Shown piece by piece: positions 6,231 to 33,688 of a stretch of 42,392 nt of DNA (its first letter is position 1; each line of letters opens with the position of its first letter). The notes beneath the pieces are model-generated. The model ran no database searches, was not told where the DNA came from, and saw only the letters and a program-made list of their open reading frames with translations. The translations under genes and the position numbers were made by a program. The DNA is from a virus (taxonomy: Duplodnaviria > Heunggongvirae > Uroviricota > Caudoviricetes): IMG/VR virus record IMGVR_UViG_2778261252_000011. One strand, 5' to 3'.

Positions 6231-6671
6231 AATTATCTCCATTTTTACAAATGAACTTTGTTGATGCGGTGCCTGGTGCCTCCAGGTGACTGCAACCAGT
6301 TAACAATTACAGTCGGCTTTCCCACCCAAACCAATAAGGACTAACATGACTTTTAACTGTGCCACGTGCGCTTAGCCGCATTCACCGCATCACAAAATTC
6401 ACTTTAAAAAGGGCGGACATCAGCCGAACTTCAAGAAAAAAACTGATGCCGCCAGGACTACACACAGCAATGTCGTTATTTACAACCGGAGGCGCACTCC
6501 CACCATTTAAATTTAACAGACAAGACCGACTCTTTATGGATATCGGAAATGCGCCTTCGTGTTGTGCCCGGTTTTATTTCACCACCTCCGGGCTTCGGTG
6601 GTCTCGGCTATACCCCTACAGCGAGAGCTTGTGTTAACATTTCAATACCCTTACAGTTGAGAGTTATTGAT

Positions 6672-13856: not shown

Positions 13857-14030
13857 TGCTGTGGGTGCTTGAGGCTATCTGCCTCGGGCATGAACACCAA
13901 AGGTAGATAGAGAAAAGCCCCAGTTAACATTACGCGTCCTGCAAGACGTTTAACATTAATCTGAGGCCATATCTATGCGACACATAGAGATTAGCCTCTT
14001 ACGGACCGAAAGGTCAAGGAGAAGCAGGCT

Positions 14031-14156
14031 ATGAAGCAGCAAAAGGCGATGTTAATCGCCCTGATCGTCATCTGTTTAACCGTCATAGTGACGGCACTGG
14101 TAACGAGGAAATACCTCTGCGAGGTACGAATCCGAACTGGCAGACGGAGGCTCTGA
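14031..14156 (+). CDS. Hok/Gef-family type I toxin, C-terminally truncated or divergent (41 aa); possible frameshifted allele
   Basis: Translation MKQQKAMLIALIVICLTVIVTALVTRKYLCEVRIRTGRRRL; the family-typical C-terminal segment is absent; a 19-codon mok-like upstream ORF (13975-14034) overlaps the start. Confidence 0.6.
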   Translation: MKQQKAMLIALIVICLTVIVTALVTRKYLCEVRIRTGRRRL

Positions 14157-16337: not shown

Positions 16338-16876
16338 TTTACCCAACAAATACAGGCAAAAGCGGGGAACACCTTCGTCTCACCACGCTGGAAAGTGTCT
16401 GGATTCAGGGAAAACTGCGCATGTGGGGGCGCTGGTCGTATATTGGCGGCGGTAAGACGGGGAATATGTTCAACCAGTTGTTGGCCTCTAAAAAGCTGAC
16501 AAAAACGGCAATTAACGAGGCGCTCCGGAGGATGAAAAAAGCAGGTCTGAACAAGTCTGAACTTGAGGCTTTTTTGCGGGATATGATTAACGGTAAGCAA
16601 AAGAGCTGGCTGGCGCATTGTACTGATGCAGAGGCGTTATGTATTGATCGGGTCATAAGTGAGGTGCTGGCAGAGCATCCAGGATTGATTAGCGTCCTTC
16701 GGCAACGGTATGAGGGGCGGGGGATGACCAAACGCAAAATGGCTGAATTGCTAAATGATGCACACCCAGAGTGGTGTTTTAGCACATGCGAAAAGCGAAT
16801 TGCTAATTGGTTGGCCGTTGCTGAGTATGCGCTATACATTCCCATGCGAGAATCATTCGCTCAAAAAACGGCTTGA
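16334..16876 (+). CDS. Late-gene antiterminator Q-like protein (180 aa)
   Basis: Position just upstream of terminator, promoter, tRNAs and lysis genes; AGGAAGG Shine-Dalgarno before ATG 16334; the longer in-frame ORF from 16214 is probably not the true start. Confidence 0.55.
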   Translation: MIYPTNTGKSGEHLRLTTLESVWIQGKLRMWGRWSYIGGGKTGNMFNQLLASKKLTKTAINEALRRMKKAGLNKSELEAFLRDMINGKQKSWLAHCTDAEALCIDRVISEVLAEHPGLISVLRQRYEGRGMTKRKMAELLNDAHPEWCFSTCEKRIANWLAVAEYALYIPMRESFAQKTA

Positions 16877-16961
16877 TTTTTTACGCATAAACTGCTTCAA
16901 TTTTGCTACGCTTCGCAAAGCTGTATCGCGAGGCGAATCAAGCGCAATTAAACTTTAATAG

Positions 16962-16989
16962 AACCCGCCATCAAGCGGGTTTTGTTGTT
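16962..16989 (+). terminator. Intrinsic terminator after the Q-like gene
   Basis: Stem AACCCGC / GCGGGTT with loop CATCAA, followed by TTGTTGTT. Confidence 0.5.
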
Positions 16990-17121
16990 ATTGTGGTGTG
17001 ATATAAGAAACGACATTTAATATTGCCTTCAAAATAAATTTGTTTATATATTGTCGCGTATATTTTAAGTGAAGGTGAAATGTTCACATAAAATAAAAAT
17101 ACATAAATAAATTTACATAGC

Positions 17122-17150
17122 TTGACGCAAAGTGTTGTTGCGATTGGAAT
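17122..17150 (+). promoter_or_regulatory. Candidate late promoter (PR'-like): -35 TTGACG, weak -10 TGGAAT
   Basis: Read directly; the -10 is a poor match, so this is tentative. Confidence 0.3.
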
Positions 17151-17241
17151 ATTAAATTGTATCATCGAAAACGGTTCTGAGGGGGAACTCTTCTTTGCTC
17201 GGTGATATCGCTCGGTGATATCGCTCCCCTGAAGAACCAAT

Positions 17242-17317
<76 letters not shown>

Positions 17318-17320
17318 TAT

Positions 17321-17395
<75 letters not shown>

Positions 17396-17601
17396 GTTAG
17401 AGTCTTTCAGTCTGCGATGATGGGAAATCCCGGAGTGACTGAAAGACGTTTAAGTTATGAATGATCGCTTTTTTTTGCAAAATTGCTGTGCAGAAATACT
17501 AACCTTCGGGCAGGCGATCATTCATAAGCACTCTGCTTTTATTCCGATTAACTGTGGGTGGTTTGTTGGATAGAGTGCTTTCCTTACTGTATATATTGTT
17601 T

Positions 17602-17627
17602 CGCCCGCTTTTGCGGGCTTTTCTTTT
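17602..17627 (+). terminator. Intrinsic terminator (tR'-like) upstream of the lysis genes
   Basis: Stem CGCCCGC / GCGGGC with loop TTTT, followed by TTTTCTTTT. Confidence 0.6.
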
Positions 17628-17687
17628 CAAATCCCTTTCATTTCTCAGTGTAAAACTACGCCATCCGTTATTTGCGGAGGTGAGGCT

Positions 17688-17903
17688 ATGAAATCCATGG
17701 ACAAAATTTCAACGGGCATTGCCTATGGCACCTCCGCAGGCAGTGCTGGCTACTGGTTTTTACAGTGGCTTGATCAGGTCAGTCCGTCACAGTGGGCTGC
17801 GATTGGTGTGCTGGGGAGTCTGGTTCTGGGCTTCCTGACTTATCTGACAAATCTGTACTTCAAAATCAGAGAAGACAAGCGTAAGGCTGCACGGGGAGAG
17901 TAA
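17688..17903 (+). CDS. Phage-21-type pinholin (71 aa) with dual-start motif MKSMDK
   Basis: Translation [45 protein letters not shown]... matches the S21 pinholin as I recall it; Met1 and Met4 starts. Confidence 0.9.
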
Positions 17904-18855: not shown

Positions 18856-19316
18856 GCAGAGTCGCCGCGATTATTTATGCTTTGGTTATCTGCATCATCG
18901 TCTGCCTGTCGTGGGCGGTCAATCATTACCGTGATAACGCCACCGCCTACAAAGAGCAGCGCGACAAAAATGCCAGAGAACTGAAGCTGGCGAACGCGGC
19001 AATTACTGACATGCAGATGCGTCAGCGTGATGTTGCTGCGCTCGATGCAAAATACACGAAGGAGTTAGCTGATGCGAAAGCTGAAAATGATGCTCTGCGT
19101 GATGATGTTGCCGCTGGTCGTCGTCGGTTGCACATCAAAGCAGTCTGTCAGTCAGTGCGTGAAGCCACCACCGCCTCCGGCGTGGATAATGCAGCCTCCC
19201 CCCGACTGGCAGACACCGCTGAACGGGATTATTTCACCCTCCGGGAACGACTGGTAATGATGCAGGCCCAACTTGAAGGTGCTCAGCAATACATAACCGA
19301 ACAGTGTTTAAAGTAA
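18852..19316 (+). CDS. Rz i-spanin (about 154 aa); GTG start overlapping the endolysin stop, alternative in-frame ATG at 18837
   Basis: Translation (M)[29 protein letters not shown]... closely matches lambda/Rac Rz. Confidence 0.8.
19072..19257 (+). CDS. Rz1 o-spanin lipoprotein (61 aa) embedded in the +1 frame of Rz
   Basis: Lipobox VVGC, proline-rich body; fully nested within Rz. Confidence 0.8.
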
Positions 19317-19453
19317 AATCTTAACTACAATATGATTCATTTTGATGATTGTTTCATAAGGAACAGTGAAGTAAGATCTAAGAGGAGTTAAATTTTATAC
19401 AGTATAATCATAATATTGCAGCAAGGTGGTTATAATTGAAAGAATATTTAGAT

Positions 19454-20911
19454 ATGAATACATCTCATGTAAGAGTTGTTACTCATATGTGTGGGTTCCT
19501 GGTTTGGCTCTATAGTCTTTCAATGTTGCCACCAATGGTTGTAGCATTGTTTTATAAAGAAAAAAGCCTGTTCGTTTTCTTTATAACTTTCGTTATATTT
19601 TTTTGTATTGGTGGCGGAGCGTGGTATACAACTAAGAAATCTGGCATTCAATTACGTACCCGTGATGGGTTTATTATAATTGTAATGTTTTGGATTTTGT
19701 TTTCTGTTATTAGTGCATTCCCTTTATGGATTGACTCAGAACTTAATTTAACGTTCATTGATGCTCTGTTTGAAGGGGTTTCTGGAATAACAACAACAGG
19801 AGCAACTGTAATTGATGATGTTAGTTCATTACCTCGGGCATATTTGTACTATCGGTCACAGTTAAATTTTATAGGTGGTTTAGGAGTTATTGTTCTGGCG
19901 GTTGCTGTATTGCCATTATTGGGTATTGGTGGTGCAAAGCTTTATCAGTCAGAAATGCCGGGGCCATTTAAGGATGACAAACTCACTCCCCGCCTGGCCG
20001 ATACGTCACGGACACTGTGGATAACTTATTCTTTATTAGGTATTGCTTGTATTGTCTGTTATAGACTTGCAGGAATGCCTTTGTTTGATGCTATTTGTCA
20101 CGGGATTTCCACAGTTTCGCTTGGTGGTTTCTCAACTCATAGCGAGAGTATCGGATATTTTAATAACTATTTGGTTGAGCTGGTGGCTGGTTCTTTTTCC
20201 CTGCTATCGGCTTTCAACTTCACTCTTTGGTATATTGTTATTAGCAGGAAAACGATAAAACCTTTAATCAGAGATATTGAACTTCGTTTCTTTCTGTTAA
20301 TAGCCTTAGTGGTGATCATTGTTACCTCTTTCCAGGTCTGGCATATAGGTATGTATGACTTGCATGGAAGTTTTATTCATTCGTTTTTTCTTGCCAGCTC
20401 CATGCTCACTGATAATGGTTTAGCTACGCAGGATTATGCAAGCTGGCCCACGCACACGATAGTGTTTTTGCTGTTGTCAAGTTTCTTTGGGGGATGTATA
20501 GGTTCAACTTGTGGTGGAATTAAGTCACTTCGATTTCTTATACTTTTCAAACAAAGCAAACACGAGATAAATCAGCTTTCTCATCCCAGAGCGTTGTTGA
20601 GTGTAAATGTAGGAGGGAAGATAGTTACAGATCGTGTAATGAGGTCTGTATGGAGTTTCTTTTTTCTTTATACTCTCTTCACGGTGTTTTTTATACTGGT
20701 GTTAAATGGTATGGGATATGATTTTCTTACATCATTTGCAACAGTGGCTGCATGTATTAATAATATGGGATTAGGTTTTGGGGCTACTGCATCGTCATTC
20801 GGAGTGCTTAATGACATTGCAAAATATTTAATGTGCATAGCTATGATTCTTGGTCGCCTTGAAATTTATCCTGTTATTATATTGTTTTCAGGTTTTTTTT
20901 GGCGCTCCTAA
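19454..20911 (+). CDS. trkG: TrkG potassium uptake protein (485 aa)
   Basis: Translation MNTSHVRVVTHMCGFLVWLYSL... matches TrkG; polytopic membrane protein; markedly AT-rich codon usage relative to the neighbours. Confidence 0.9.
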   Translation: MNTSHVRVVTHMCGFLVWLYSLSMLPPMVVALFYKEKSLFVFFITFVIFFCIGGGAWYTTKKSGIQLRTRDGFIIIVMFWILFSVISAFPLWIDSELNLTFIDALFEGVSGITTTGATVIDDVSSLPRAYLYYRSQLNFIGGLGVIVLAVAVLPLLGIGGAKLYQSEMPGPFKDDKLTPRLADTSRTLWITYSLLGIACIVCYRLAGMPLFDAICHGISTVSLGGFSTHSESIGYFNNYLVELVAGSFSLLSAFNFTLWYIVISRKTIKPLIRDIELRFFLLIALVVIIVTSFQVWHIGMYDLHGSFIHSFFLASSMLTDNGLATQDYASWPTHTIVFLLLSSFFGGCIGSTCGGIKSLRFLILFKQSKHEINQLSHPRALLSVNVGGKIVTDRVMRSVWSFFFLYTLFTVFFILVLNGMGYDFLTSFATVAACINNMGLGFGATASSFGVLNDIAKYLMCIAMILGRLEIYPVIILFSGFFWRS

Positions 20912-21048
20912 TATATGGCTGATTTATAATTGTGAGTTTAATATTATGTTGACTCACTCATTGATCCAATACCTAACTTTACCAGCAACACCTCCGCCCC
21001 CAGTAGCACTGGCTGCTGGGGTGCGTTTTATTCATAAAGCAAGGCTGT

Positions 21049-21843
21049 ATGAGCGAGAAATTAAAGATAGTCTATCGCCCATTACAAGAATTGTCACCGT
21101 ATGCGCACAATGCCAGGACGCACAGTACTGAGCAGGTGGCACAACTGGTAGAAAGTATTAAGCAATTCGGCTGGACTAATCCGGTGCTGATTGACGAAAA
21201 GGGCGAAATTATTGCGGGTCACGGTCGTGTTATGGCGGCTGAAATGCTCAAAATGGATTCTGTTCCGGTCATTGTTCTGTCTGGCCTGACGGATGAGCAG
21301 AAAAAGGCGTACCGCCTGGCAGATAATCGCCTGCCGATGAATGCTGGCTGGGATGAAGATCTGTTGCGGATGGAGCTGTCGGACCTAATCAATGCTGATT
21401 TTGATGTCTCCCTGACAGGCTTCATCCCGACAGAAATTGATGAACTGTTGACGGATGTTTTGCCCGGTACAGGAAATGAGGAGGAGCCGTATACGACGAA
21501 AATTGATACGCCTGTTTATGAGCCGTCGGGCGGTAAACCGGATATCAGTGAACTGTACGACGATACGAAAACTCAGGAGCTGATCAGCCGGATACGTTCG
21601 GCGTCCCTTGATCCTGATATTGAGAAATTCCTCCTGTGTGCGGCAGAACGTCACACAGTGTTTAATTTCAGCAGAATTGCGGACTATTACGCTCATGCCC
21701 CCGCTGAAATTCAGTGCCTTTTCGAGGAGTCGGCGCTGGTGATCATTGATTATCAGCAGGCTATTGAAAATGGATTTGTCCGAATGACGCAGCGCATGGT
21801 GGAGATCATGCATGGCGGGGAGGAGGAGGAGGAATATGCGTGA
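21049..21843 (+). CDS. ParB-like nuclease domain protein (264 aa)
   Basis: N-terminal ParB/Srx-like region around IAGHGRVMAA; acidic C-terminal tail. Confidence 0.7.
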   Translation: MSEKLKIVYRPLQELSPYAHNARTHSTEQVAQLVESIKQFGWTNPVLIDEKGEIIAGHGRVMAAEMLKMDSVPVIVLSGLTDEQKKAYRLADNRLPMNAGWDEDLLRMELSDLINADFDVSLTGFIPTEIDELLTDVLPGTGNEEEPYTTKIDTPVYEPSGGKPDISELYDDTKTQELISRIRSASLDPDIEKFLLCAAERHTVFNFSRIADYYAHAPAEIQCLFEESALVIIDYQQAIENGFVRMTQRMVEIMHGGEEEEEYA

Positions 21844-22768
21844 TGATTTTTGCGCCTTTATTCTGACTCACGGGCGACCGGACAAAGTTCTGACTTACCG
21901 GACGTTGCGTCGTGCTGGCTATACCGGGAAAATTTTTATCGTTGTTGATGATGAAGATAAGACACGGCATCAGTACATGGCTGAATTTGGTGAACAGGTG
22001 CTGGTATTTTCCAAAGCCGATATTGCCAGTCGTTTTGACGAAGCCGATAATTTTGGTGATCGCCGCTCAATTTTTTACGCCCGTAATGCCTGTTTCGACC
22101 TGGCAAAACTGGTCGGGTGTAAATACTTCATTCAGCTCGATGATGATTATCACGAGTTCCAGTTTCGGGTGGATCGCAACTATGACCAGGCCTATTTCCC
22201 GATAAGGAAACTGGATGCGATCCTTTCTGAAATGCTGGCGTATTACGAATCAATACCCGCGCTTTCCATCGCTATGTCGCAGGGCGGGGATTTTCTTGGT
22301 GACAATGGCGGCCATGCTTCGTGGGTGAAACGCAAGGCAATGAACAGCTTTATCTGTTCGGTTGATCGACCGTTCTCATTCATGGGGCGCATTAACGAGG
22401 ATGTGAATACGTACACGAATCTCGGTCGCTGTGGTGAATTGTTTATGACGATCGGTGCTGTCCAGTTAGGGCAGAAACAGACGCAGAAAAACAGCGGCGG
22501 AATGACCGAGCTGTATCTGGATTCCGGAACCTACGTTAAAAGTTTTTACTCCGTCATGTATTCGCCGTCGTGCGTAAAAATCTCACTGATGGGTGCCAGC
22601 CATAAACGCATTCACCATCAGGTCACCTGGAACAACGCTGCAGTAAAAATCCTTCACGAAAAATACAGGAAGAAGACACCCTGCATATCAATGGGGGTGA
22701 CAAATGATTCCGTATTCGAAAGTCGAGTCTCTGGCAGCGTGCCGGATGACTGCACAACAAATCGCTGA
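21836..22768 (+). CDS. Hypothetical protein (311 aa) with GT-A-like features (DxD-like LDDDYHEF)
   Basis: ATGCGTGA overlap with the ParB-like stop; FILTHGRP...IFIVVDDED and QLDDDYHEF are reminiscent of GT-A glycosyltransferases; unverified. Confidence 0.45.
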   Translation: MRDDFCAFILTHGRPDKVLTYRTLRRAGYTGKIFIVVDDEDKTRHQYMAEFGEQVLVFSKADIASRFDEADNFGDRRSIFYARNACFDLAKLVGCKYFIQLDDDYHEFQFRVDRNYDQAYFPIRKLDAILSEMLAYYESIPALSIAMSQGGDFLGDNGGHASWVKRKAMNSFICSVDRPFSFMGRINEDVNTYTNLGRCGELFMTIGAVQLGQKQTQKNSGGMTELYLDSGTYVKSFYSVMYSPSCVKISLMGASHKRIHHQVTWNNAAVKILHEKYRKKTPCISMGVTNDSVFESRVSGSVPDDCTTNR

Positions 22769-22955
22769 CGTTCTGGATGTTGATCTGAACCGACTGAAAG
22801 AAAATCGGGAAGCAATGACAGATTTTTATGCGGCCATCCGTAAGGGCAGAGCGAAAGGTGAAGCCGAGTTACGAGCGGCATTGTTTAAGCTTGCCAGAAA
22901 AGGGGATGCCTTTGCTCTGCGCGAACTACTCAGGGTGGATAAAAATCAGGACTAA
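22704..22955 (+). CDS. Small HTH-like protein (83 aa; alternative start at 22746)
   Basis: ORF overlapping the 3' end of the previous gene; function unclear. Confidence 0.4.
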   Translation: MIPYSKVESLAACRMTAQQIADVLDVDLNRLKENREAMTDFYAAIRKGRAKGEAELRAALFKLARKGDAFALRELLRVDKNQD

Positions 22956-22958
22956 CTG

Positions 22959-24053
22959 ATGAGCAGACCGGACTGGGGGGCGTTGCAGCAGGAGTATATT
23001 GCTGAATACACCCGCTCCGGTATATCTCCGGTGGCATGGTGTGAAGCAAGGGGACTGAACTACGCAACAGCCCGTCGTTACATCAAAAAAACTCCGAAAA
23101 ATGCGCAGAAAGAAATGCGCAAAACTGCGCAAAAAAGTGCGCGAAAAAAAACTGCGCAGACTGCGCAAAGGCAGAACGGAAAATCTCAGAAAAAAAAGGC
23201 TGTATCCGATGCACTCCTGATTGAGGGGGACACGGAAGAAATTTCGTTCTGCCCCGATGAATTCGGTATTTCTGACCAGCAGGCAAAATTCGCCATGTTG
23301 GTTGCTCAGGGGAAAAAGCCGACAGAGGCATACCGACTGGCTGGTTATGAGGGGCAAGGTGCGACAGCTAACAGCAACGCCAGCCGTATGCTTAGAAATG
23401 CCAGGGTTTATCGTGCTATCAGCTACTTCCGCAATCAGTACCAGAAACGCTATACCGCAGACCTGGATTTACTGGTGAGCCAGTTGATGGCCATTGTCCA
23501 GGCCGACCCCAATCAGTTGGCACAATTTCGCCGTGTTAACTGCCGTTATTGCTGGGGCGAGAATCATCTCTACCAGTGGCGTGATATTGCAGAATTCGAT
23601 AAGGCTGCGGCACAGGCCTCCAGAGATGGTAAACCCGAGCCGGAATATGGAGGCCTCGGCTTTGTTGATAACGCCATACCCAATCCTGATTGCCCGAAGT
23701 GCTGCGGTGAGGGAACAGGACAGCTTTATATGGCTGATACCACACTGCTTGATGGGGATGCGCGGCAATTATATGCAGGGTCAAAGCTCGGAAAATACGG
23801 TGTTGAGATCCTGCTGGAGGATAAGGCTGCCGCCCGGCGTGAATTGTTGCGTTTGCTTTCTGCTGGCGGGGCATTATGTGCAGATAAGCGGCTACAGGAA
23901 CTGGAAATTGAACGGCGCAGAATAGAGAACCAGAAGCTGCGCAAAGAGATCGAAACGGTGGAGGATAATGAACATCCCCAGCCTGTGGCGATCAATATTA
24001 ATGTGGTTGATGCCAGATTAAGGAGTGATGAAGATGATCTCTCCGACGCTTAA
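22959..24053 (+). CDS. Terminase small subunit (364 aa)
   Basis: Segment AKFAMLVAQGKKPTEAYRLAGY typical of terminase small subunits; immediately upstream of the large subunit; contains repeated GCGCA motifs. Confidence 0.7.
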   Translation: MSRPDWGALQQEYIAEYTRSGISPVAWCEARGLNYATARRYIKKTPKNAQKEMRKTAQKSARKKTAQTAQRQNGKSQKKKAVSDALLIEGDTEEISFCPDEFGISDQQAKFAMLVAQGKKPTEAYRLAGYEGQGATANSNASRMLRNARVYRAISYFRNQYQKRYTADLDLLVSQLMAIVQADPNQLAQFRRVNCRYCWGENHLYQWRDIAEFDKAAAQASRDGKPEPEYGGLGFVDNAIPNPDCPKCCGEGTGQLYMADTTLLDGDARQLYAGSKLGKYGVEILLEDKAAARRELLRLLSAGGALCADKRLQELEIERRRIENQKLRKEIETVEDNEHPQPVAININVVDARLRSDEDDLSDA

Positions 24054-25335
24054 TGTGCCTCAGGCGCGATTTCTTTCAATGCCCCATAAATTTAAAGCCT
24101 ATATTGCTGGTTTTGGCTCGGGCAAAACATGGGTTGGGTGTGGCGGCATATGCAAGGGGATTTGGGAGCATCCAGGTATAAATCAGGGATATTTTGCGCC
24201 AACGTATCCCCAAATTCGCGATATTTTTTACCCTACAGTGGAAGAAGTTGCTGCTGACTGGGGATTGAACGTAAAAATTAATGAGGGAAATAAAGAGGTT
24301 CACTTTTATTACGGACGCCAGTATCGGGGAACCACTATCTGCAGATCGATGGAGAAGCCACAAACGATCGTCGGTTTCAAAATTGGTAATGCGCTGGTGG
24401 ATGAACTGGACATTTTGCCGAAGGAAAAAGCCAGAACGGCGTGGCGCAAGATAATTGCGCGTATGCGTTATAAGATTGATGGACTTCGCAACGGTATTGA
24501 CGTTACAACCACGCCGGAAGGATTCAAATTTGTCTACGAGCAGTTTGTTAAAGCCGTGCGTGAAAAAACAGAGCTGGCCTCACTGTATGGTCTGGTGCAG
24601 GCATCTACTTTCGATAATGAAAAGAACCTGCCAGCAGATTACATTCCTTCACTTCTTGAATCATACCCTCCAGAGCTGATTAAAGCCTATCTTCTAGGAC
24701 GGTTTACTAACCTGACAAGTGGTACTGTTTACCATCAGTTTGACCGGAAACTGAATAATTGCGAAGAAGTGGAGCAGCCAGGGGAGCCGATTTATATTGG
24801 GATGGATTTTAACGTTGGAAAGATGGCGGGAATCGTCCATGTGCTGCGTTTGGGGCTTCCATGTGCGGTAACTGAAATCATCAATGCCTACGATACGCCG
24901 GATATGATCCGCCTCATTAAAGAACGCTTCTGGCTGTATGACGGGCATGATTACCGGAAAGTGAGGGAGATTTATATTTATCCAGATGCTTCCGGAGATT
25001 CCAGAAAATCAAGTAACGCAAGTACGACGGATATAGCCCAGCTTAAGCAGGCAGGTTTTAACGTTGTGGTGAACAGCTCGAACCCGCCAGTAAAAGATCG
25101 CGTTAACTCAATGAATGCAATGTTCTGCAATGCCAATGGTGAGCGTCGCTATAAAGTTAATGTGAAGCGTTGTCCGGTATATGCCGAATCTCTGGAGCAA
25201 CAGGTCTGGGATGATAAGGGGGAGCCTGATAAAAAATCTGGCAATGATCACCCGAATGATGCCGGAGGTTATTTCATCGTTAAGCAATTCCCTATTGTCA
25301 AACCGACCGGAAGAGTCACATCACTTCGGATTTAA
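24025..25335 (+). CDS. Terminase large subunit (436 aa)
   Basis: Walker A GFGSGKT near the N-terminus; size and position. Confidence 0.85.
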   Translation: MMKMISPTLNVPQARFLSMPHKFKAYIAGFGSGKTWVGCGGICKGIWEHPGINQGYFAPTYPQIRDIFYPTVEEVAADWGLNVKINEGNKEVHFYYGRQYRGTTICRSMEKPQTIVGFKIGNALVDELDILPKEKARTAWRKIIARMRYKIDGLRNGIDVTTTPEGFKFVYEQFVKAVREKTELASLYGLVQASTFDNEKNLPADYIPSLLESYPPELIKAYLLGRFTNLTSGTVYHQFDRKLNNCEEVEQPGEPIYIGMDFNVGKMAGIVHVLRLGLPCAVTEIINAYDTPDMIRLIKERFWLYDGHDYRKVREIYIYPDASGDSRKSSNASTTDIAQLKQAGFNVVVNSSNPPVKDRVNSMNAMFCNANGERRYKVNVKRCPVYAESLEQQVWDDKGEPDKKSGNDHPNDAGGYFIVKQFPIVKPTGRVTSLRI

Positions 25336-25337
25336 TT

Positions 25338-26744
25338 ATGGCTGATATATCAACACCCAACCTCGACTATAACGATATGCTGGAGGCGTGGGATATTAAC
25401 GACGCATTGATGGGCGGTACGCTTGAAATGCGCAGGCAGGGGGAAAATTATCTCCCCAAATGGCCTAATGAAGATGAAGACGCTTATAAAAAACGCCTGT
25501 CTGTGGCTACGTTACTTCCTGTGTATGAAGAAAGCATCAAACAAAATATTGGGCGCATATTTGCAGAGCCGACAGTATTGAGTGAGGAAACGCCGGAAAA
25601 AATCAGGGAATATGCAGAAAATATCGACATGGAGGGGAGCCGACTGGATGTGTGGGCGCAGCAATTTTTCAGTCTCGCATTTCAGTATGGTGTGGCACAT
25701 GCGCTGGTGGACTATCCACGAACGGATATGAACGAGATTCGGACAAAAGCCGATGAAAACGCGGCCGGTGGTCGCCCGTACGTTACGATGCTGAATCCAC
25801 GCCAGGTTATTGGATGGAAATCGAAAGTTGAAAAAGGGAAAGTTGTTCTCACTGATTTGCGTATAAAAGAGGTCATCATTATTGATGGTGATGATTTCGG
25901 GCAGAAGAAGGTGGAGCAGATCCGCCATATTATGCCCCGTCGAGTAGAAATTTATCGACGCAGCGAAGGTACTAATGGCGAATCTGTCTGGATGCTTCAT
26001 GAGTCATGGAATACCAGCCGTGATGATATTCCTCTGGTAACACTGTATACGAAGAAAACAGGGTTTATGCGTGGTACACCGCCATTGCTTAATCTTGGCT
26101 TGCTGAATATCAAGCACTGGCAAAGCCAGAGCGAGCAGGACAATATTCTTCATGTTGCCCGCGTTCCATTGCTGGTGGCCTACGGGCTGGACAGGAATGA
26201 AGAACTGACGGTTGGTGCATCCACGGCTACGATTTTTGAGGACAGAACAAAAAATGGCCTCGAATATGTTGAACATAGTGGCGCAGCGATAGAATCTGGC
26301 GAAACATCACTTGAGAAGCTGGAAAATCAGATGCGTCATGCCGGCGCTAAACTTCTGCGGGCTGAAAATACATCCACCAAATCTGTTGATCGGACTAATG
26401 AAGAGCGGATGCAGGAACACTCGCCGCTTTATACAATGGCGAACTCCCTCGAAGATGCCCTCGATAATATTCTCCAGATAATGGCGGAATGGAGCGGAGA
26501 GAGTTGCGGTGGCAATGTGGATGTGCGCACTGAACTGGATGTATCTGCCCAGGTGTTTGACTCATCCTCCGCGCTGGCTGTTCAGTCATTGCGTCAGGGC
26601 GGTGATATACGTCAGATTGATGCGGTTCGGGTGTTGCAGGCGTTGAAATTTATCGATCAGGATTCCCGTCCAGAGGAAGTGATCGATGAATTAAAAAATC
26701 AGAGTGTAATGCTGATGGAAATCAATGATGCAAACCGTGAATGA
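25338..26744 (+). CDS. Portal protein (468 aa)
   Basis: Size and position directly after the terminase large subunit. Confidence 0.7.
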   Translation: MADISTPNLDYNDMLEAWDINDALMGGTLEMRRQGENYLPKWPNEDEDAYKKRLSVATLLPVYEESIKQNIGRIFAEPTVLSEETPEKIREYAENIDMEGSRLDVWAQQFFSLAFQYGVAHALVDYPRTDMNEIRTKADENAAGGRPYVTMLNPRQVIGWKSKVEKGKVVLTDLRIKEVIIIDGDDFGQKKVEQIRHIMPRRVEIYRRSEGTNGESVWMLHESWNTSRDDIPLVTLYTKKTGFMRGTPPLLNLGLLNIKHWQSQSEQDNILHVARVPLLVAYGLDRNEELTVGASTATIFEDRTKNGLEYVEHSGAAIESGETSLEKLENQMRHAGAKLLRAENTSTKSVDRTNEERMQEHSPLYTMANSLEDALDNILQIMAEWSGESCGGNVDVRTELDVSAQVFDSSSALAVQSLRQGGDIRQIDAVRVLQALKFIDQDSRPEEVIDELKNQSVMLMEINDANRE

Positions 26745-27840
26745 ACGGCTGCGTGATGAATCAATTGCTCATGCAGTCTGGATATCCCGCTATAGCACTG
26801 GCGTGGCTGCCAGAATGGTGAAAATACTGAATGACAGCGATGCGGAACTTACTGCTCGCCTGCTGATAGCACTGGACAGCCTCGATCCAGGTAGTTTTAC
26901 CGTTAAGCGCCTGGAGTCACTTCTGGCGAGCGTCAGAGAGGTTAACCGCACTGCTATTAACAGCATGTTTACCAGTCTCTCCGGAGAGCTGAACGAGCTG
27001 GCAATTTATGAGGCTGGTTATCAGTTAAGTCTGTTTGATTCTATGCTACCTGATTTTGTTGCTGATGTTCACCCTCTGGTTGGTATCTCTCCTGATGCAC
27101 TTTATGCCGCTGCAATGGCGCGACCATTCCAGGGACGACTGCTCAGTGAGTGGGCCTCAGATCTTGAGGCGGATCGGCTCAGACGCATAACAAATACAGT
27201 GCGTCAGGGTTTTTTGCTGGGGGATACCAATGAGCAGATCGCAAGAAAAATTCGGGGACATGTCAGTAAGGGATTTCAGGATGGTGCATTGCAGATGAGC
27301 CGGGCTAATGCGGCCAGCATTGCAAAAACAGCGGTTGGACATCTTGCTGCTACTGCCCGTGAGAGTTTTGCCAGCGCGAATAATGATTTGATTAAGGGTA
27401 AGCAATGGTTATCAACGCTTGATAATCGTACTACGCCACAATGTCGAATCAGGGATCGCCTCAAATATACGCTGAATAATAAACCTGTAGGTCACAGCGT
27501 GCCTTATTTGCAGGGGCCGGGAAAAATTCATTTCTGCTGCCGCTCAACGGAAACGTTCATTCTGAAATCAGCGAAGGAACTGGGTATTGATGTTCGCGAT
27601 ATTTCCCCGGCTGAGCGGGCCAGCATGGATGGCGTGGTGGCCGGAGATACAACCTACAGGGAATGGTTTTTGCGTCAGCCTTACACCAGACAAAAACAGA
27701 TTGTGGGGGAAACCCGAGCAAAGCTGATTCGGGATGGTGGTATGTCGCCAGATGAATTTTACACCGATAAAGGCGAATGGCTGACGCTGAAGCAGCTCCG
27801 TGAGCGTGATGCACAGGTATTCAGAAAAGCAGGGATTTAA
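26725..27840 (+). CDS. Head morphogenesis protein (371 aa, Mu F / SPP1 gp7-like)
   Basis: C-terminal segment TTPQCRIRD...HFCCRST and position after the portal gene. Confidence 0.75.
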   Translation: MMQTVNERLRDESIAHAVWISRYSTGVAARMVKILNDSDAELTARLLIALDSLDPGSFTVKRLESLLASVREVNRTAINSMFTSLSGELNELAIYEAGYQLSLFDSMLPDFVADVHPLVGISPDALYAAAMARPFQGRLLSEWASDLEADRLRRITNTVRQGFLLGDTNEQIARKIRGHVSKGFQDGALQMSRANAASIAKTAVGHLAATARESFASANNDLIKGKQWLSTLDNRTTPQCRIRDRLKYTLNNKPVGHSVPYLQGPGKIHFCCRSTETFILKSAKELGIDVRDISPAERASMDGVVAGDTTYREWFLRQPYTRQKQIVGETRAKLIRDGGMSPDEFYTDKGEWLTLKQLRERDAQVFRKAGI

Positions 27841-27860
27841 ATAAATCATTTATTACAACA

Positions 27861-27885
27861 GGCTACCTTCGGGTGGCCTTTTTTA
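27861..27885 (+). terminator. Intrinsic terminator
   Basis: Stem GGCTACC / GGTGGCC (one G-U) with loop TTCG, followed by TTTTTT. Confidence 0.55.
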
Positions 27886-27944
27886 TTGCTGCGATCCGGA
27901 TGGTGAGCAGCGTAACTGTCGGAAGACTTAAACCAGGTACTAAT

Positions 27945-28709
27945 ATGAAACTGAAAACGGTCGAGATTAACGGAAAACAATACGCAGAAATTGATACTGC
28001 TGGCCTGCCAGTTTATGTGCACGACGATGGTAAAGAAATTGGCTTCGATGCACCGCTGGCGACAAAAAAAATTACAGAGCTTAATGGCGAGGCAAAAAAT
28101 CATCGCCTGGCTAAAGAAGCTGCAGAGGAAAAACTGGCTAAGTTTGCCGCTATCGAAGACCCGAAGAAGGCGATCGAGGCACTGGAAATGCTGTCAAAAA
28201 TCGACCAGAAAAAGCTGCTCGATGCGGGACAGGTTGACCAGGTTAAGGCAGAAATTACGAAAAATTTTCAGCAGCAATTAGATGAAGAAAAGCAACGCTC
28301 TCAGATGCTGGAGAAGCAGCTTTACGATTCTATGATTGGCGGTAGTTTTGCGGGTTCAAAATATATTGCCGATAAAATTGCGATCCCGGCAGATTTATTA
28401 CAAGCCCGCTTCGGGCAGGCATTCAAAGTGGAAGAAGGGAGGATCGTTGCTTATGACGCTTCCGGCAACAAAATTTATTCCCGCGCGAAGCCTGGCGAAC
28501 TGGCGCAGTTTGATGAGGCGCTGGAGTTCCTTGTCGAAAATTACCCTCAGAAAGACTACATCCTGAAAGCCAGTGGCAACAATGGCGGCGGCTCCCGTCC
28601 GACACAGCATGATATTGGTCAGAAAACGATGAAACGCTCTGCTTTTGATGCACTGGATGTTGCAGGTAAGCAAAACGCATTGAAAGACGGTATCACAATC
28701 GTTGATTAA
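27945..28709 (+). CDS. Putative scaffolding protein (254 aa)
   Basis: Charged, coiled-coil-like sequence between the head morphogenesis and capsid genes; start chosen downstream of the terminator. Confidence 0.5.
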   Translation: MKLKTVEINGKQYAEIDTAGLPVYVHDDGKEIGFDAPLATKKITELNGEAKNHRLAKEAAEEKLAKFAAIEDPKKAIEALEMLSKIDQKKLLDAGQVDQVKAEITKNFQQQLDEEKQRSQMLEKQLYDSMIGGSFAGSKYIADKIAIPADLLQARFGQAFKVEEGRIVAYDASGNKIYSRAKPGELAQFDEALEFLVENYPQKDYILKASGNNGGGSRPTQHDIGQKTMKRSAFDALDVAGKQNALKDGITIVD

Positions 28710-28807
28710 CACATTTGTCAGCTTCCGGATGGGAGCTGGTGTCAGGGCTGGATAGCTCATTACTCCATCTATTCACAATTACGCAAATTTTTAAGGAATA
28801 TTTAATT

Positions 28808-29947
28808 ATGGCTGGAAATACCCTGACCGGGTTGATCCCGACTATTTATACCGCCCTGGATGTTGTATCCCGTGAGCAGGTAGGTTTTATCCCTGCGGTA
28901 GCAAAAAACGCAAAAGCTGACGCCGCAGCAAAAGATCAGACGGTAACCGCGCCAGTTGCGCCTGAGGCGAAAACCGAAGATATCGTACCGGGGCCGTCAG
29001 CTCCGAATACCGGTGATCAAAATATTGGCACTGTTGATGTAAAAATTACTAAATCCAAAATGGCACCGGTTAAATGGAATGGTGAAGAACAACTGGCTCT
29101 TGGCCCTTCAGGGACTTACAACACCATTCTGGCTGATCAGTTCAAGCAGGCTTTTCGCGCCCTTGCAAACGAGGTTGAGGCTGATCTTGGTGCGTTGTAT
29201 TTCGGTGCTTCCCGCGCCGTGGGAACCGCAGGGACAACGCCGTTTGGTGTTAAAGATGATCTTTCTGATGCTGCTCTGGCTCGTCAGGTTCTGGAGGATA
29301 ACGGCGCACCGACAACCGATCTGCAGATGGTGCTTGGCTCCACTGCCATTGCTAATTTGCGCGGAAAACAGTCTGTATTGTTTAAAGTGAATGAATCCGG
29401 CACTGAACAGCTACTGCGTGAGGGCGTGTTGGGGCGTCTGGAGGGATTCAATATTCACAGTTCGGCAGGTGTGAAACGAGCGCCAAAGGTTGCTGCAACT
29501 GGTTATCTCGTGAATGGAGAGAAAAAAGAAGGCGATGTTCTTATTTCCATTGATACTGGTTCGGGGAGTATTTCTGCAGGTCAGATTGTTACGTTCGCTG
29601 GTGATCCGAATCAGTATGTTGTGGCAGCAGCGACCAGCAATCTGATTACTCTTGCAGCGCCCGGACTGCGTCAGGATCTGGCCGATGATACTGCCATCAC
29701 AGTTGTTGGGGCCTTTACTGCAAATATGGCGTTTGATCGCAACGCGTTTCTGCTGGCATCCCGTACTCCGGCAATGCCGGAAGGTGGCGATAATGCTGAT
29801 GATGTAATGAATGTTACGGACCCGATTTCAGGGATTACGTTCCAGATTGCACTGTATCGTCAGTATCGCCAGGTGCGCTATGAAGTTGGACTGGCATGGG
29901 GTGTTTCATCAGTGAAGCCGGCACATGGTTGTCTGATTCTTGGTTAA
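28808..29947 (+). CDS. Major capsid protein (379 aa)
   Basis: Position after the scaffold-like gene; followed by a strong terminator; start at MAGNTLTG. Confidence 0.7.
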   Translation: MAGNTLTGLIPTIYTALDVVSREQVGFIPAVAKNAKADAAAKDQTVTAPVAPEAKTEDIVPGPSAPNTGDQNIGTVDVKITKSKMAPVKWNGEEQLALGPSGTYNTILADQFKQAFRALANEVEADLGALYFGASRAVGTAGTTPFGVKDDLSDAALARQVLEDNGAPTTDLQMVLGSTAIANLRGKQSVLFKVNESGTEQLLREGVLGRLEGFNIHSSAGVKRAPKVAATGYLVNGEKKEGDVLISIDTGSGSISAGQIVTFAGDPNQYVVAAATSNLITLAAPGLRQDLADDTAITVVGAFTANMAFDRNAFLLASRTPAMPEGGDNADDVMNVTDPISGITFQIALYRQYRQVRYEVGLAWGVSSVKPAHGCLILG

Positions 29948-29957
29948 ACATTCAAAC

Positions 29958-29977
29958 GGGGCTTCGGCCCCATTTTT
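29958..29977 (+). terminator. Intrinsic terminator after the capsid gene
   Basis: Stem GGGGC / GCCCC with loop TTCG, followed by ATTTTT. Confidence 0.55.
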
Positions 29978-29989
29978 AATGGGGGGCAT

Positions 29990-30166
29990 ATGGCCGGATT
30001 AACTAAAGAGCAAAGAGCACAGCGTGAAGCCGCACAAAAAACGCAAATTGAGTTAGTGGTTATGGTGACCGATTATCAGATGTTTCCCGGCGCACCAACT
30101 ATCGCTAATGTTCATCCTGATGAAGTTGACAACTGGAAGGCTATGGGCTGGAAAACTCAGGAGTAA
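29990..30166 (+). CDS. Small hypothetical head-region protein (58 aa)
   Basis: Hand translation MAGLTKEQRAQREAAQKTQIELVVMVTDYQMF...; fills the gap between the terminator and the next gene. Confidence 0.35.
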   Translation: MAGLTKEQRAQREAAQKTQIELVVMVTDYQMFPGAPTIANVHPDEVDNWKAMGWKTQE

Positions 30167-30169
30167 CAC

Positions 30170-30565
30170 ATGATCACTTACGTGACCTGTGATGACGTTG
30201 ATAATGCGTTTGGGAACGCCTGGACGAGTGAGAACGCTAAAAATAAAGCTGTTTTAATGGCTAATGCCTGGCTTAATGGCTTCAACCTGAAAATTAACCC
30301 ATCCCGTATTCCGGAAGAGGTAAAACTTGCGGGAGCATATGCAGCCAGAATTGCCTCATTCGGTAAGTTGTTTCAGCAGAAAAATGATTCTGGCGTTGTT
30401 ATCAGTAAAGCCGTGTCGGCTGACGGGGTCAGTGTATCGAAATCATTTTCTGAGTTGCCAGCAAACAGCACTGCATTGCTTGAACCCGATTTACAGCTTG
30501 CGATAGCACTGCTGAAACCGTACGGACTTAGTCGCTCACAAGTCAGGGTTGTGAGGGGGGGATAA
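30170..30565 (+). CDS. Head-tail connector / head completion protein (131 aa)
   Basis: Position and size within the head-tail joining block; no specific motif recognised. Confidence 0.45.
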   Translation: MITYVTCDDVDNAFGNAWTSENAKNKAVLMANAWLNGFNLKINPSRIPEEVKLAGAYAARIASFGKLFQQKNDSGVVISKAVSADGVSVSKSFSELPANSTALLEPDLQLAIALLKPYGLSRSQVRVVRGG

Positions 30566-30948
30566 TGGGGCTTCGTGAAGAGATTCAGTCAGAGGTTGCC
30601 GCTGCTTTTGATGAGGATTTAGCGGACGCCGTGAGTGATTTTTCTGGTTCTTACGTTACGCACCGGCACTGGGATCCTGTGACGGAAACTGGCGGCGAAT
30701 CCACCGCAATCTATACCGGGCGAGGCGTGTTGACACGTTATAAGCTGGGCAGAATTGATGGGATTAATATTTTGCATGGTGACCTTAAATTAACCGCTCT
30801 GGTATGCGAGGTTACGGATAAACCAGCTGTCGACCATATTATTGAGATTTATGATCCTGTATCAAGGCAGTTACAACGATACGAGGTAATTACAGCAAGT
30901 GTAGATCCTTCCGCATCAGTTTACTCTATCCAGTTAAGGAGAGCGTAA
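30565..30948 (+). CDS. Head-tail joining protein (127 aa)
   Basis: Position and size; ATGA-type overlap with the upstream gene. Confidence 0.45.
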   Translation: MGLREEIQSEVAAAFDEDLADAVSDFSGSYVTHRHWDPVTETGGESTAIYTGRGVLTRYKLGRIDGINILHGDLKLTALVCEVTDKPAVDHIIEIYDPVSRQLQRYEVITASVDPSASVYSIQLRRA

Positions 30949-31329
30949 ATGGCAAAGGCATGGGATATAGAACCGTCAATATTTGCCGGGATGATTGAGG
31001 AAGATGTAGGGCTGAAGATTCGCTACATCGCTATGCAGATTCTTACTGCTATTGATATTGCTGCTCCGGTTGATACCGGACGTTTCAGAAATAACAACCT
31101 GGTGTCGTTACAGCATCCCGATTTTGGTATATCTGATAACGTGGATCCGAACGGTACGATTGCTGTTCAGCGTGGGATCGGGGTTATTTCGAAAGCTGCA
31201 AATTACGGGGTTATTTATATCCAGAATAACCTTCCTTATGCAGAGGCTCTTGAAAACGGTCATTCACAACAAGCGCCAACTGGCGTGTATGCCAACGCTT
31301 TTCATGGTGTTTTACAGGCTTACAAATGA
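30949..31329 (+). CDS. Tail completion / neck protein (126 aa, HK97 gp10-like)
   Basis: Motif DTGRFRNN typical of the HK97 gp10 family as I recall it. Confidence 0.5.
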   Translation: MAKAWDIEPSIFAGMIEEDVGLKIRYIAMQILTAIDIAAPVDTGRFRNNNLVSLQHPDFGISDNVDPNGTIAVQRGIGVISKAANYGVIYIQNNLPYAEALENGHSQQAPTGVYANAFHGVLQAYK

Positions 31330-31718
31330 AGTTTACTGAAATCAGAAATACGGTTATTTCCAGAATGACGGCACAGACGATTATTGATGGAAAAGACGTA
31401 TTGTATCCGAACGGGCCAACGTTCGATCCTTCCGGTAAGTTAATCTGGGCGCGGTTAAGTAATATTCCCGGGCAGGCTGGAGTTAATGAAATTGGCGCGG
31501 GGCCGGTTGTTTATCGCACGGGGATAATCATTATTCAGTTATTTGTCCCCGCAGGTTCTGGTTCAAAACTCATTACTGAGACAGCCGATAAATTGCGGGA
31601 ACTGTTTGAGTTTCAGGATGACGATCGTCTCAGTTACCAGGCTGTTTCCTCAATAGCCGTCGGCGAAAAGAATGGCTGGTTCCAGCTTAATCTTCAAATT
31701 CCATATCGCGCGCTCTAG
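31326..31718 (+). CDS. Tail terminator-like protein (130 aa)
   Basis: Position immediately upstream of the major tail protein. Confidence 0.45.
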   Translation: MKFTEIRNTVISRMTAQTIIDGKDVLYPNGPTFDPSGKLIWARLSNIPGQAGVNEIGAGPVVYRTGIIIIQLFVPAGSGSKLITETADKLRELFEFQDDDRLSYQAVSSIAVGEKNGWFQLNLQIPYRAL

Positions 31719-31744
31719 CGCAATTAATGACATAGGAGGCTCCT

Positions 31745-32707
31745 GTGAGTTCAGGTGCAAAGGTTATCTCGGCATTTATCCGGGAGACGGTTGCAGGCAC
31801 TACGCCAGCAAGTGGTGACTGGAGTTTATTAAAACGCACAAGCTGGGGAGTAAAACCCACCCAGAATAAAGGCGAAAATAATGAGATTGGTGGCTCCCGG
31901 ATGGCTCAGGGGGCGACGCCTGGCACTGTGGATGTCGGCGGTGATGTTGGTACCAAATTTCGCTGGGGTCAACATGATGATTTTCTTGCATCCTGTTTCG
32001 GCGCGGAATGGTCAGGCGATTCTCTGACAATGGGGAATGAGCGAATAACATTTTCTCTGGCGACCTATGCGTCCGATGTCGGAATTGCCTCTGTCGTCAG
32101 AGGAGCGCAGGTTGGCTCATGGAAAATGCAGATCCCTAACGACGGCGATATTACAGCGACCGTAACCTTTGCCGGACTGGACTGGGAATCAAAGGCCGAT
32201 GATACGAATTTTATCAAAGGCGAACCTGTGGATAGTGCAGGAAAGCTACGTTATTCGTTTAAGGAGGTTTCAGCAGTAAGCCTGAATGGTGTTGCCGGAG
32301 GTAACGGTTTTTGTATCGACAGTTTTGATATTCAGTTCGATAACAAACTCCAGACACAGCGTTGTATCGGGACTGGCTCGCCTTATGCAGGAGCAAATAT
32401 TCCGACTACTTTTACACCGTCCGGTACGGTGACGCTTTCATGGTCTAAAGCCGCGTGGGAAATCTGGAGTAAAACACTGACTGGAGAAACAGTTCCGTTC
32501 AGCTTCACGCTTTCGAATGGAGAGGGGGCATACACTTTCAGTTTCCCGAAGGTTCAGGTGTCAGGTGAATGGCCTGATGGGGGTAATAGCGACATTATCC
32601 AGGTTCAATTGAGCATTACCGCAGCAGATGAAGCACCTACGATAACCAGAAAAAAAAATTCCCCGGCTGCCGTGATCGCAAAAGCCAGTGCTGAGGCGAT
32701 TAGTTGA
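31745..32707 (+). CDS. Major tail (tube) protein (320 aa), GTG start
   Basis: GGAGG Shine-Dalgarno before GTG 31745; position upstream of the chaperone pair and tape measure. Confidence 0.7.
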   Translation: MSSGAKVISAFIRETVAGTTPASGDWSLLKRTSWGVKPTQNKGENNEIGGSRMAQGATPGTVDVGGDVGTKFRWGQHDDFLASCFGAEWSGDSLTMGNERITFSLATYASDVGIASVVRGAQVGSWKMQIPNDGDITATVTFAGLDWESKADDTNFIKGEPVDSAGKLRYSFKEVSAVSLNGVAGGNGFCIDSFDIQFDNKLQTQRCIGTGSPYAGANIPTTFTPSGTVTLSWSKAAWEIWSKTLTGETVPFSFTLSNGEGAYTFSFPKVQVSGEWPDGGNSDIIQVQLSITAADEAPTITRKKNSPAAVIAKASAEAIS

Positions 32708-32755
32708 TTTTCCGTTATTCCTCCTGTGGTACTGCCCTACAGGGGGACGCATTGA

Positions 32756-33217: not shown

Positions 33218-33525
33218 CTGCCCAGCGGTGGTTATCGGAGTTCGGGGGAGAAAGGGGGGAAAAGGCAAGATGGAAGCGAGAAAAACTCAGGTTGCCACCG
33301 ATACCGGAACCAGAAATAGACCCGGTGCTTAAGGAGTTGTTGTACGCCTATTCGGTAATATCCCGTGCCCGACGTTATGCTGGAATGGCTGGGGTGCCTT
33401 TGCCTTTATCTCTGACAGAGATAAATGAATATTTAGCCACTCATCCGGTATTGATTGAGCGCGATGAATTTGAAGCAGTGATCTTTGCACTGGATGACCA
33501 GTATTTTCAGGAGCAGTGTGTGTAG
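32756..33525 (+). CDS. Tail assembly chaperone G-T-like fusion made by -1 programmed frameshift at A AAA AAG (33205-33211)
   Basis: The -1 frame is open from the slippery site through 33525 with no stop; same arrangement as lambda G/GT. Confidence 0.6.
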
Positions 33526-33688
33526 TTGTTAATTACGTACACTCTGTTACAGAGATGTGATGGTGTCTTTAATTAAATCGATGATGCTCCTGGAGAAAAG
33601 CATTGCGTGGCCTCGTAATCGCTATATCTACTATTATGTCGCCTGAAACCCACTTCGGTGGGCTTTTTGTTGTCTGGAGTTCTAATAA

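Follow-up and report, generated by a model that had tools for sequence, protein, structure and literature searches.

Lambda 6S RNA and StxS are non-coding RNAs (ncRNAs) of the late leader that end at a terminator read through by Q-modified polymerase. In the E. coli tRNA operon glyW-cysT-leuZ, the 3' external transcribed spacer, 3'ETS-leuZ, is a stable RNA of ~50 nucleotides (nt) that is released by RNase E, binds Hfq and sequesters small RNAs (sRNAs). Structured ncRNAs also lie beside tRNA genes in phages, namely GOLLD, ROOL and the species 1 and 2 RNAs of T4, and the T4 RNAs are co-transcribed with the tRNAs. In addition, sRNAs bound by Hfq are encoded in the slot beside the holin gene; one of them, PasA, arises by cleavage of a longer transcript and has a terminator at its end (10.64898/2026.05.13.724894; PMC8550237). 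The put RNA of phage HK022 is ~70 nt long with two stems and an RNA triplex, and putL occupies a promoter-proximal position in the early-left operon of that phage (PMC9378689). Herein, we analysed the 42,392-nt sequence of IMG/VR virus record IMGVR_UViG_2778261252_000011 (the window), in which three hairpins, H1, H2 and H3, follow two tRNA genes and are followed by a terminator and a holin gene. The kind of element is a familiar one: a structured small RNA of a prophage, located in the slot between Q and the holin gene and placed like the trailer of a tRNA operon. There is every likelihood that the stretch is a conserved + strand structured RNA of three-module architecture. As an RNA family, or three families, it is well supported and is absent from Rfam.

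An earlier note on this DNA had reported three perfect inverted repeats in a row and a terminator behind them. The repeat scan found all three, of 11, 14 and 9 bp within 17402-17627, and the terminator scan placed the terminator at 17603-17627. The second repeat, given before as 12 bp, measured 14 bp (17455-17468 / 17514-17527). The arms are spaced by 24-45 nt as described, but the interiors hold further conserved helices and are not plain loops. The RNA of 17396-17630 folded at -83.1 kcal/mol, compared with -56.3 +/- 4.1 kcal/mol for 200 dinucleotide shuffles (z = -6.6), and none of the 200 was as good.

The lower stem of H1 (17402-17412 / 17437-17447) is a perfect helix of 11 bp with a 24-nt interior. 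Within it, a C-stem (G17414-C17415 with G17435-U17436) is followed by a 3-nt bulge (G17416, A17417, U17418), the tandem pairs G17419.A17434 and A17420.G17433, and an upper stem (17421-17424 / 17429-17432) capped by a 4-nt loop. A K-turn consists of a canonical stem, a 3-nt bulge, tandem sheared G.A and A.G pairs and a non-canonical stem. The H1 loop has this pattern, with G-A-(U/A/G) as the bulge, and on that ground it appears to be a K-turn-like motif. Among 35 distinct H1 variants, G29, A30, A44 and the A at L2 were each present in 35/35 and G43 in 33/35; the third bulge base L3 (U, A or G) and the capping loop vary, and the flanking stems are kept. By pattern, AUGAUG...CGGA in H1 resembles box C (RUGAUGA) and box D (CUGA) of the box C/D K-turn, but the 3b.3n position of H1 is U.G, A.U or A.G and not U.U. 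E. coli is not known to have a K-turn-binding protein of the L7Ae type.

H2 forms a three-way junction. Its closing stem (TTATGAATGATCGC / GCGATCATTCATAA, 14 bp with 45 nt between the arms) encloses an inner helix (17472-17479 / 17489-17496, with a 9-nt loop) and a small hairpin at 17503-17510 (CC-UUCG-GG), and it has two A residues in common with H3. H3 begins with a perfect 9-bp lower stem (17526-17534 / 17572-17580) extended by G17535.U17571. A 7-nt A/U-rich bulge on the 5' side (17536-17542) separates it from an upper stem of 11 bp (17543-17553 / 17560-17570) with the apical loop GUGGGU (17554-17559). The 3' strand of H3, GGGUGGUUUGUUGGAU, is nearly invariant and reads GGGUGGUUUGUUGGRU among relatives.

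In diverged homologues, compensatory changes keep all three stems. In an H2+H3 alignment of 36 distinct sequences, 98.0% of the stem cells were paired, against 35-50% when the partners were slid. The corresponding values were 96.2% against 39-49% for 23 H1 variants and 89.6% against 34-46% for 48 distinct model-fitted H3 sequences, an alignment that leans towards its model. Nine pairs of H2+H3 were altered on both sides (for example U-A/A-U and G-C/U-A), including C-G/U-A changes at three consecutive H3 positions. The closing stem of H2 has five pairs with changes on both sides; its inner helix varies through G-U, and by eye one locus (L141) carries fully compensated changes there. H1 has G-C/A-U swaps at two adjacent pairs, and in the 48-sequence set one position of the H3 lower stem takes A-U, C-G and U-A.

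The same alignment also bears on the strand. The H2+H3 stem cells comprised 1296 Watson-Crick pairs, 180 G-U pairs and 12 A-C mismatches. On the opposite strand each G-U would be an A-C mismatch; therefore, the selection acts on + strand RNA and not on DNA palindromes. The upper stem of H3 varies on one side, as the partner of the 3' strand changes A/G opposite U and C/U opposite G, and the lower stems have wholly diverged in sequence while the upper part stays fixed. That pairing is kept by wobble during one-sided variation suggests a further constraint on the G/U-rich strand, in addition to pairing.

That a small protein accounts for this conservation is hardly credible. Two short open reading frames (ORFs) do exist, one of 38 aa on the + strand (17457-17573) and one of 43 aa on the - strand (17499-17630), and the latter is annotated as hypothetical in phage vB_EcoS-689R5 (ON470583). 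However, the 38-aa frame stops after 10 codons in HK639-type copies, single-base changes in the length of T-runs inside H2 would frameshift both frames, other indels also fall inside them, and the substitutions track base pairing rather than codons. The statement of the earlier note that no ORF explains the hairpins thus held. The 'hypothetical protein' URC08906.1 lies across H2-H3 in vB_EcoS-689R5 (L002 3103-3234; ON470583.1 18694-18825, - strand). Since the conservation is of the RNA type and indels occur, this annotation probably does not represent a real gene.

The Rfam search that had been suggested as a check matched the hairpins to no family. With Rfam 15 at the gathering threshold, the interval 16850-17750 yielded only the two tRNAs, and at E-values up to 10 nothing was found over 17396-17600. 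In ten related loci, the matches were the tRNAs, STnc100 beside the element, and families elsewhere in those loci.

Homologues were collected in several ways. A blastn search with the 295-nt region matched 542 of 5426 complete E. coli genomes (~10%), on chromosomes only and always beside a holin gene. Among 50,697 phage records, four E. coli phages matched at ~98% identity and HK639 at 77%; when named phages carrying H3 alone were sought, blastn matched only this E. coli group and HK639. In IMG/VR, scans for exact words, first from the H2 loop and later from the H3 core, added many diverged copies, and when one genome was scanned for each species, copies turned up in Phytobacter, Enterobacter, Escherichia, Shigella, Yokenella and Citrobacter. 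Every copy that was placed by tblastn of its neighbour proteins sits between the late-gene regulator and the lysis cassette. This position does not depend on the type of holin or of endolysin (lysozyme or chitinase-like), and the Q proteins concerned belong to two or more unrelated families. H3 is separated from the following gene by as little as 20 nt and as much as ~3 kb.

Judged from these sequence comparisons, H1, H2 and H3 are separable modules that would fold independently and are independently exchangeable. H1 is missing and tRNA-Gly is directly followed by H2-H3 in eight loci (L022, L031, L033, L053, L054, L082, L128 and L129). In L005, L037, L088, L052 and L110, H2-H3 stand behind small ORFs or a 132-aa ORF and not behind a tRNA. 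L191 has H1-H2 without H3, and in L164 H1 is accompanied by a second, unrelated hairpin. Many loci have H3 only; the lower stems there differ completely in sequence, but the upper part is the same. Two phages carry two copies of H3 (L196, 975-1042 and 2414-2481; L205, 1884-1946 and 341-409). In both, a lone H3 is followed 1.3-1.4 kb downstream by a cassette that ends in the second H3 and contains tRNA/H1/H2/H3 in L196 and at least H1 and H3 in L205. These paired copies flanking cassettes suggest that H3 is a homologous joint for the entry of cassettes into the late leader.

H3 on its own was found in three contexts. It may come straight behind tR', itself preceded by the Q gene and a pR'-like promoter, with the first late ORF 20-190 nt further on (L131, L135, L194, L207), or be followed by a terminator before the lysis cassette, with no Q gene within 2 kb (L174, L190, L198, L203). 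In the third context it stands at the start of an operon, 25 nt before a DUF4406-like first ORF (L197; also L159, L178, L184, L193). A cI-like repressor gene is co-directional with this operon, and the cro-like and replication genes point the other way; H3 sits where nutL sits in lambda or putL in HK022. In L197, H3 is at 6448-6515, a divergent 291-aa ORF lies ~85 nt upstream, and no N-like gene is evident. The H3 version upstream of the DUF4406-like gene was absent from the E. coli genomes searched.

We compared the locus with each of the described systems. The earlier note had proposed a structured ncRNA made from the late promoter and comparable in position to lambda 6S RNA. As alternatives it had named a processing or antitermination element, which may yet hold, for H3 in particular. 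A structured + strand ncRNA with compensatory changes and a terminator was what we found, but the 6S-like position was not: the terminator at 16956-16987 lies between the end of Q (16876) and the hairpins. The window thus has its own, separate 6S-like unit upstream, and the hairpins begin 415 nt past tR', behind a second promoter-like site and the two tRNAs. We therefore rejected a leader of the lambda 6S/StxS type as the identity of the element.

Like the put sites of HK022 and HK639, the element has adjacent stem-loops in nascent RNA, and a lone H3 occupies a putL-like place in one phage group. However, H2+H3 extend over ~125 nt with another architecture, and the window element lies after tR' in a Q-controlled operon. 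The H3 model gave no match at E <= 1 in HK022 24000-40751, where the put sites are expected from the genome map (they are not annotated there).

PasA, PasC, PasD, STnc100 and AgvB occupy the same Q-to-holin slot upstream of holin and lysozyme genes and likewise end in an intrinsic terminator. The window element is larger and more structured, and we found no similarity to them in sequence or structure. A search with the H3 model only gave no match better than E = 4 in YYZ-2008 19000-24500, which includes the PasA slot. No Stx phage was among the blastn matches to the phage records, and Rfam gave no match to AgvB, AsxR, Esr41 or STnc100 in the window region. STnc100, a family of Hfq-associated sRNAs, follows directly after H3 and its terminator in HK639 (L001 3254-3459) and in L088 (4106-4304), and in L110 (3405-3618 and 3082-3204) it lies upstream of H1. 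These phages therefore appear to have, between Q and the lysis genes, a series of small RNA units with their own terminators.

With the 3' spacers of tRNA operons the element shares its position. The hairpins lie between the end of tRNA-Gly (17395) and the terminator on the same strand, with no intervening ORF, as 3'ETS-leuZ lies between the last tRNA and the terminator of its unit, and the product would be set free by tRNA excision and keep the terminator hairpin and a U-tail. The window element differs in being ~230 nt long, prophage-borne and built of three conserved modules. GOLLD and ROOL had no Rfam match in the window or in the ten related loci; compared with these RNAs, the element is much smaller, of other modular make-up, and found in lambdoid prophages of Enterobacteriaceae. 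Some resemblances were noted by eye and are leads only: the RfaH ops site (7/10 positions), boxB of phage 21 (CAAC-UAACC), GcvB (the 9-mer GUCUGCGAU), T-box stem I and the 5' end of 4.5S RNA. We did not find the element described in the literature on HK639, on 3'ETS with prophage, or on lambdoid tRNA with non-coding RNA.

On balance, we favour the view that a self-contained tRNA unit of the prophage has this stretch as its structured 3' trailer, which may work as a stable RNA product. It is possible, though we would not rely on it, that it is a stable product acting in trans. H1 begins 6 nt beyond the 3' end of tRNA-Gly, and in other phages the 3' half of this tRNA accompanies H1. The unit is closed by a terminator with a G+C-rich hairpin and a U-run (GCCCGC-TTTT-GCGGGC, then the T-run TTTTCTTTTC), 60 nt upstream of the start codon of the holin gene; most homologues have a terminator of unrelated sequence 10-30 nt after H3. 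The sigma-70-like site ahead of the tRNAs is a match to the consensus only, and such sites were not more numerous in the window region than in shuffles. By eye, near-consensus sigma-70 sequences (TTGCAA or TTGCAT, 17 nt, TATTAT or TATCAT) directly precede the first tRNA in L002, L125, L128 and L052.

Because the hairpins lie behind tR' in a unit with its own sigma-70-like promoter, they would be made both from the tRNA promoter and by Q-modified read-through. Since promoter-like sequences precede the first tRNA, the primary transcript in a lysogen would consist of the leader, tRNA-Thr, tRNA-Gly, H1-H3 and the terminator. Transcription from the unit's own promoter would halt at this terminator, and the holin and lysis genes would stay silent. 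In the lytic phase, polymerase that starts at pR' and is modified by Q would pass both terminators. Once RNase P and RNase E had cut out the tRNAs, an RNA of ~230 nt, rich in hairpins, would remain with the terminator and a U-tail, a form that is known from sRNAs of tRNA spacers and of prophages. This RNA may act as a stable product, like the 3' spacer RNAs of tRNA operons and the Pas and STnc100 sRNAs, and sequence-specific contacts might be made through its invariant parts, that is, the G/U-rich strand of H3, the loops of H2 and the K-turn of H1.

Several points weigh against a stable trailer product. Lone H3 copies stand 25-45 nt upstream of start codons with no terminator between (L131, L135, L197), and in our analysis the lone-H3 contexts would fit a cis-acting leader element better than a trans-acting RNA; they speak for H3 acting in cis on processing, stability or elongation. 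A search of the 42-kb window for complements to the H3 strand and the H2 loop returned only the element itself or matches at chance level. The expression, the RNA ends and the stability of the product are all inferred. Kinship among the sequences means that the shuffle controls overstate independence and do not give a probability. In addition, the homologues were gathered by exact k-mers from the H2 loop or the H3 core, and the conservation of those k-mers is partly ascertainment. With independent anchors, the H3 core was almost fixed in the H2-anchored set and, judged by eye, the H2 loop varied moderately in the H3-anchored set.

The lone copies also lead to the rival that comes nearest to the trailer, a cis-acting module for processing or stability of the late transcript, in which H3 above all would be a recognition site or barrier for RNase III or RNase E. 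Such a module would part the tRNAs from the lysis mRNA, guard the upstream RNA from 3' exonucleases and cap the 5' end of the downstream mRNA. It would account for the place of lone H3 in the 5' untranslated regions of long operons, for the few nt between H3 and the likely transcript start in the L197 type, and for the start of H1 just behind tRNA-Gly. RNase III needs about two helical turns, and H2 (a 14-16 bp stem plus an 8-bp inner helix) and H3 (9 + 11 bp) are of about that size; their helices total ~20-23 bp and are broken by a junction or a bulge. However, a barrier hairpin would not need a near-invariant H3 strand or the K-turn bases of H1 while the lower stems change freely. In the lysogen, the terminator between H3 and the holin gene leaves no downstream mRNA to protect, and the spacing from H3 to the next gene is anything but constant. 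We consider this module a serious but rather doubtful candidate. Alternatively, H3, perhaps with H2, could be an elongation signal that binds polymerase or a host or phage elongation factor, like put RNA or nut. The putL-like position of lone H3 at the start of early-left-type operons with no N-like first gene speaks for it, as do the terminators that usually follow H3 in late regions and the fixed G/U-rich strand whose partner changes A/G and C/U. In late operons, however, H3 lies after tR' and cannot serve to pass it, and polymerase modified by Q disregards terminators anyway. If a constitutive antiterminator lay downstream of the tRNA promoter and ahead of the holin gene, lysogens would express the lysis genes, which makes such an antiterminator unlikely in the window. 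Furthermore, the H3 model found nothing in HK022, the architecture of put differs, and + strand terminator-like sites downstream of H3 in L197 were no commoner than in shuffles. An elongation signal is improbable.

A bolder version joins parts of these explanations. H3 would be a new class of nascent-RNA signal heading long lambdoid operons, both late and early-left, read via its invariant GGGGUGGUUUGUUGGGU strand by polymerase or by a host factor of elongation or RNA decay, and H1+H2 would make a larger folded RNA or ribonucleoprotein tied to the expression of phage tRNAs. We think this unlikely; if true, enterobacteria would have in this element their equivalent of the unexplained phage RNAs that adjoin tRNA genes. 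Very improbable indeed is a collection of non-functional relics, whether hitch-hikers derived from tRNA or recombination joints, or palindromes that work at the DNA level as protein sites or the scar of a mobile element. The interior of H1 (GATGATG-GGG..CCC) does resemble by eye the variable loop and T-arm of tRNA-Gly (GATGATGCGGG..CCCGC), mosaic joints lie inside tRNA-Gly and at the module borders, and the H3 copies of L196 and L205 flank an inserted cassette as expected of a recombination joint. Against this, compensatory changes keep all stems, G-U exceeds A-C by 15 to 1 as for RNA and not for cruciforms or protein-binding palindromes, and the lower stems of H3 have fully diverged around a fixed upper part. 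The stable trailer of a tRNA unit thus remains the reading that we prefer.

Features of the tRNA and hairpin unit and its neighbours in the window
Feature	Position	Strand	Basis
pR'-like region, short leader and first terminator tR'	16874..16990	+	Terminator stem 16956-16987 by scan; hexamers by eye only
Sigma-70-like promoter of the tRNA unit, TTGCGA-16 nt-TATCAT	17138..17165	+	Consensus scan
tRNA-Thr (UGU)	17242..17317	+	ARAGORN; Rfam tRNA, 73.8 bits
tRNA-Gly (UCC)	17321..17395	+	ARAGORN; Rfam, 63.4 bits
Module H1	17402..17447	+	Repeat scan, fold, pair counts on 23 variants, matches of covariance model R2, column frequencies
Module H2, three-way junction	17455..17527	+	Repeat scan, fold, alignment
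Module H3	17526..17580	+	Repeat scan, fold, alignments; covariance model R1, 75.8 bits in the window
Intrinsic terminator closing the tRNA and hairpin unit	17603..17627	+	Terminator scan
Class II holin, first gene of the lysis cassette	17688..17903	+	ORF list and annotations of matching genomes; context, not part of the RNA

The sequence of the window is that of a lambdoid, Rac-like E. coli prophage. From 5' to 3', the region around the hairpins holds DUF1367-like and DUF1364-like ORFs, a Q-type ORF (its end taken from the ORF list), tR', an AT-rich stretch with the promoter-like site, tRNA-Thr, tRNA-Gly, H1, H2, H3, the terminator, and the genes for the class II holin, YdfR, a lysozyme, Rz and trkG. 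The trkG-like potassium transporter gene (19436-20911) comes directly after Rz. The Rac prophage of K-12 has rzpR-trkG in the same arrangement and is not known to have the Q, tRNA and lysis region. Elsewhere in the window, Rfam matched RalA (1557-1735) and sok (13863-14033). Given the Rz-trkG order, RalA and sok, the window looks like a more complete relative of Rac that keeps the Q/tRNA/lysis region.

The leader at 16910-16991 is likely the 6S/StxS-type pR' transcript of this prophage. It shows weak, sub-threshold Rfam similarity to the Salmonella prophage sRNAs STnc370 (30 bits) and isrK (14 bits). Between the promoter-like site and tRNA-Thr, the leader of the tRNA unit contains an exact 13-nt tandem duplication (GCTCGGTGATATC x2, 17197-17222). 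From the alignment, the matching interval of vB_EcoS-689R5 holds a tRNA-Met gene and a further unannotated tRNA-like stretch. In HK639 (L001 2925-2990) and E. coli E7-1N7 (L003 2925-2999), only the 3' half of tRNA-Gly stands before H1; unrelated sequence takes the place of the 5' half, and ARAGORN predicts no tRNA at this site. Homology in these two loci begins within tRNA-Gly and therefore marks a mosaic joint inside the tRNA gene. At the start of the holin gene, a perfect 10-bp inverted repeat (TGCGGAGGTG / CACCTCCGCA, 17673-17682 / 17729-17738) pairs the Shine-Dalgarno region with codons 14-17. The N-terminus of the holin, MKSM, offers two possible starts, and the repeat resembles the sdi stem that sets the ratio of holin to antiholin in lambda S.

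About one in ten complete E. coli genomes, and prophages of several other enterobacterial genera, carry this RNA. Its location is strategic, since it is joined to phage tRNAs and lies between the switch for the late genes and the genes for lysis. The Q-to-holin slot is already known for prophage sRNAs that rewire host regulation. That H3 recurs at the start of long phage operons of two different kinds adds to its interest. A multi-module element that is supported by covariation, bears a K-turn signature and a near-invariant strand, and has no assigned family is a tractable target. Its role could be that of a new regulatory RNA in lysogens, of a signal for the processing of transcripts from the phage tRNA and lysis genes, or of a signal in elongation.

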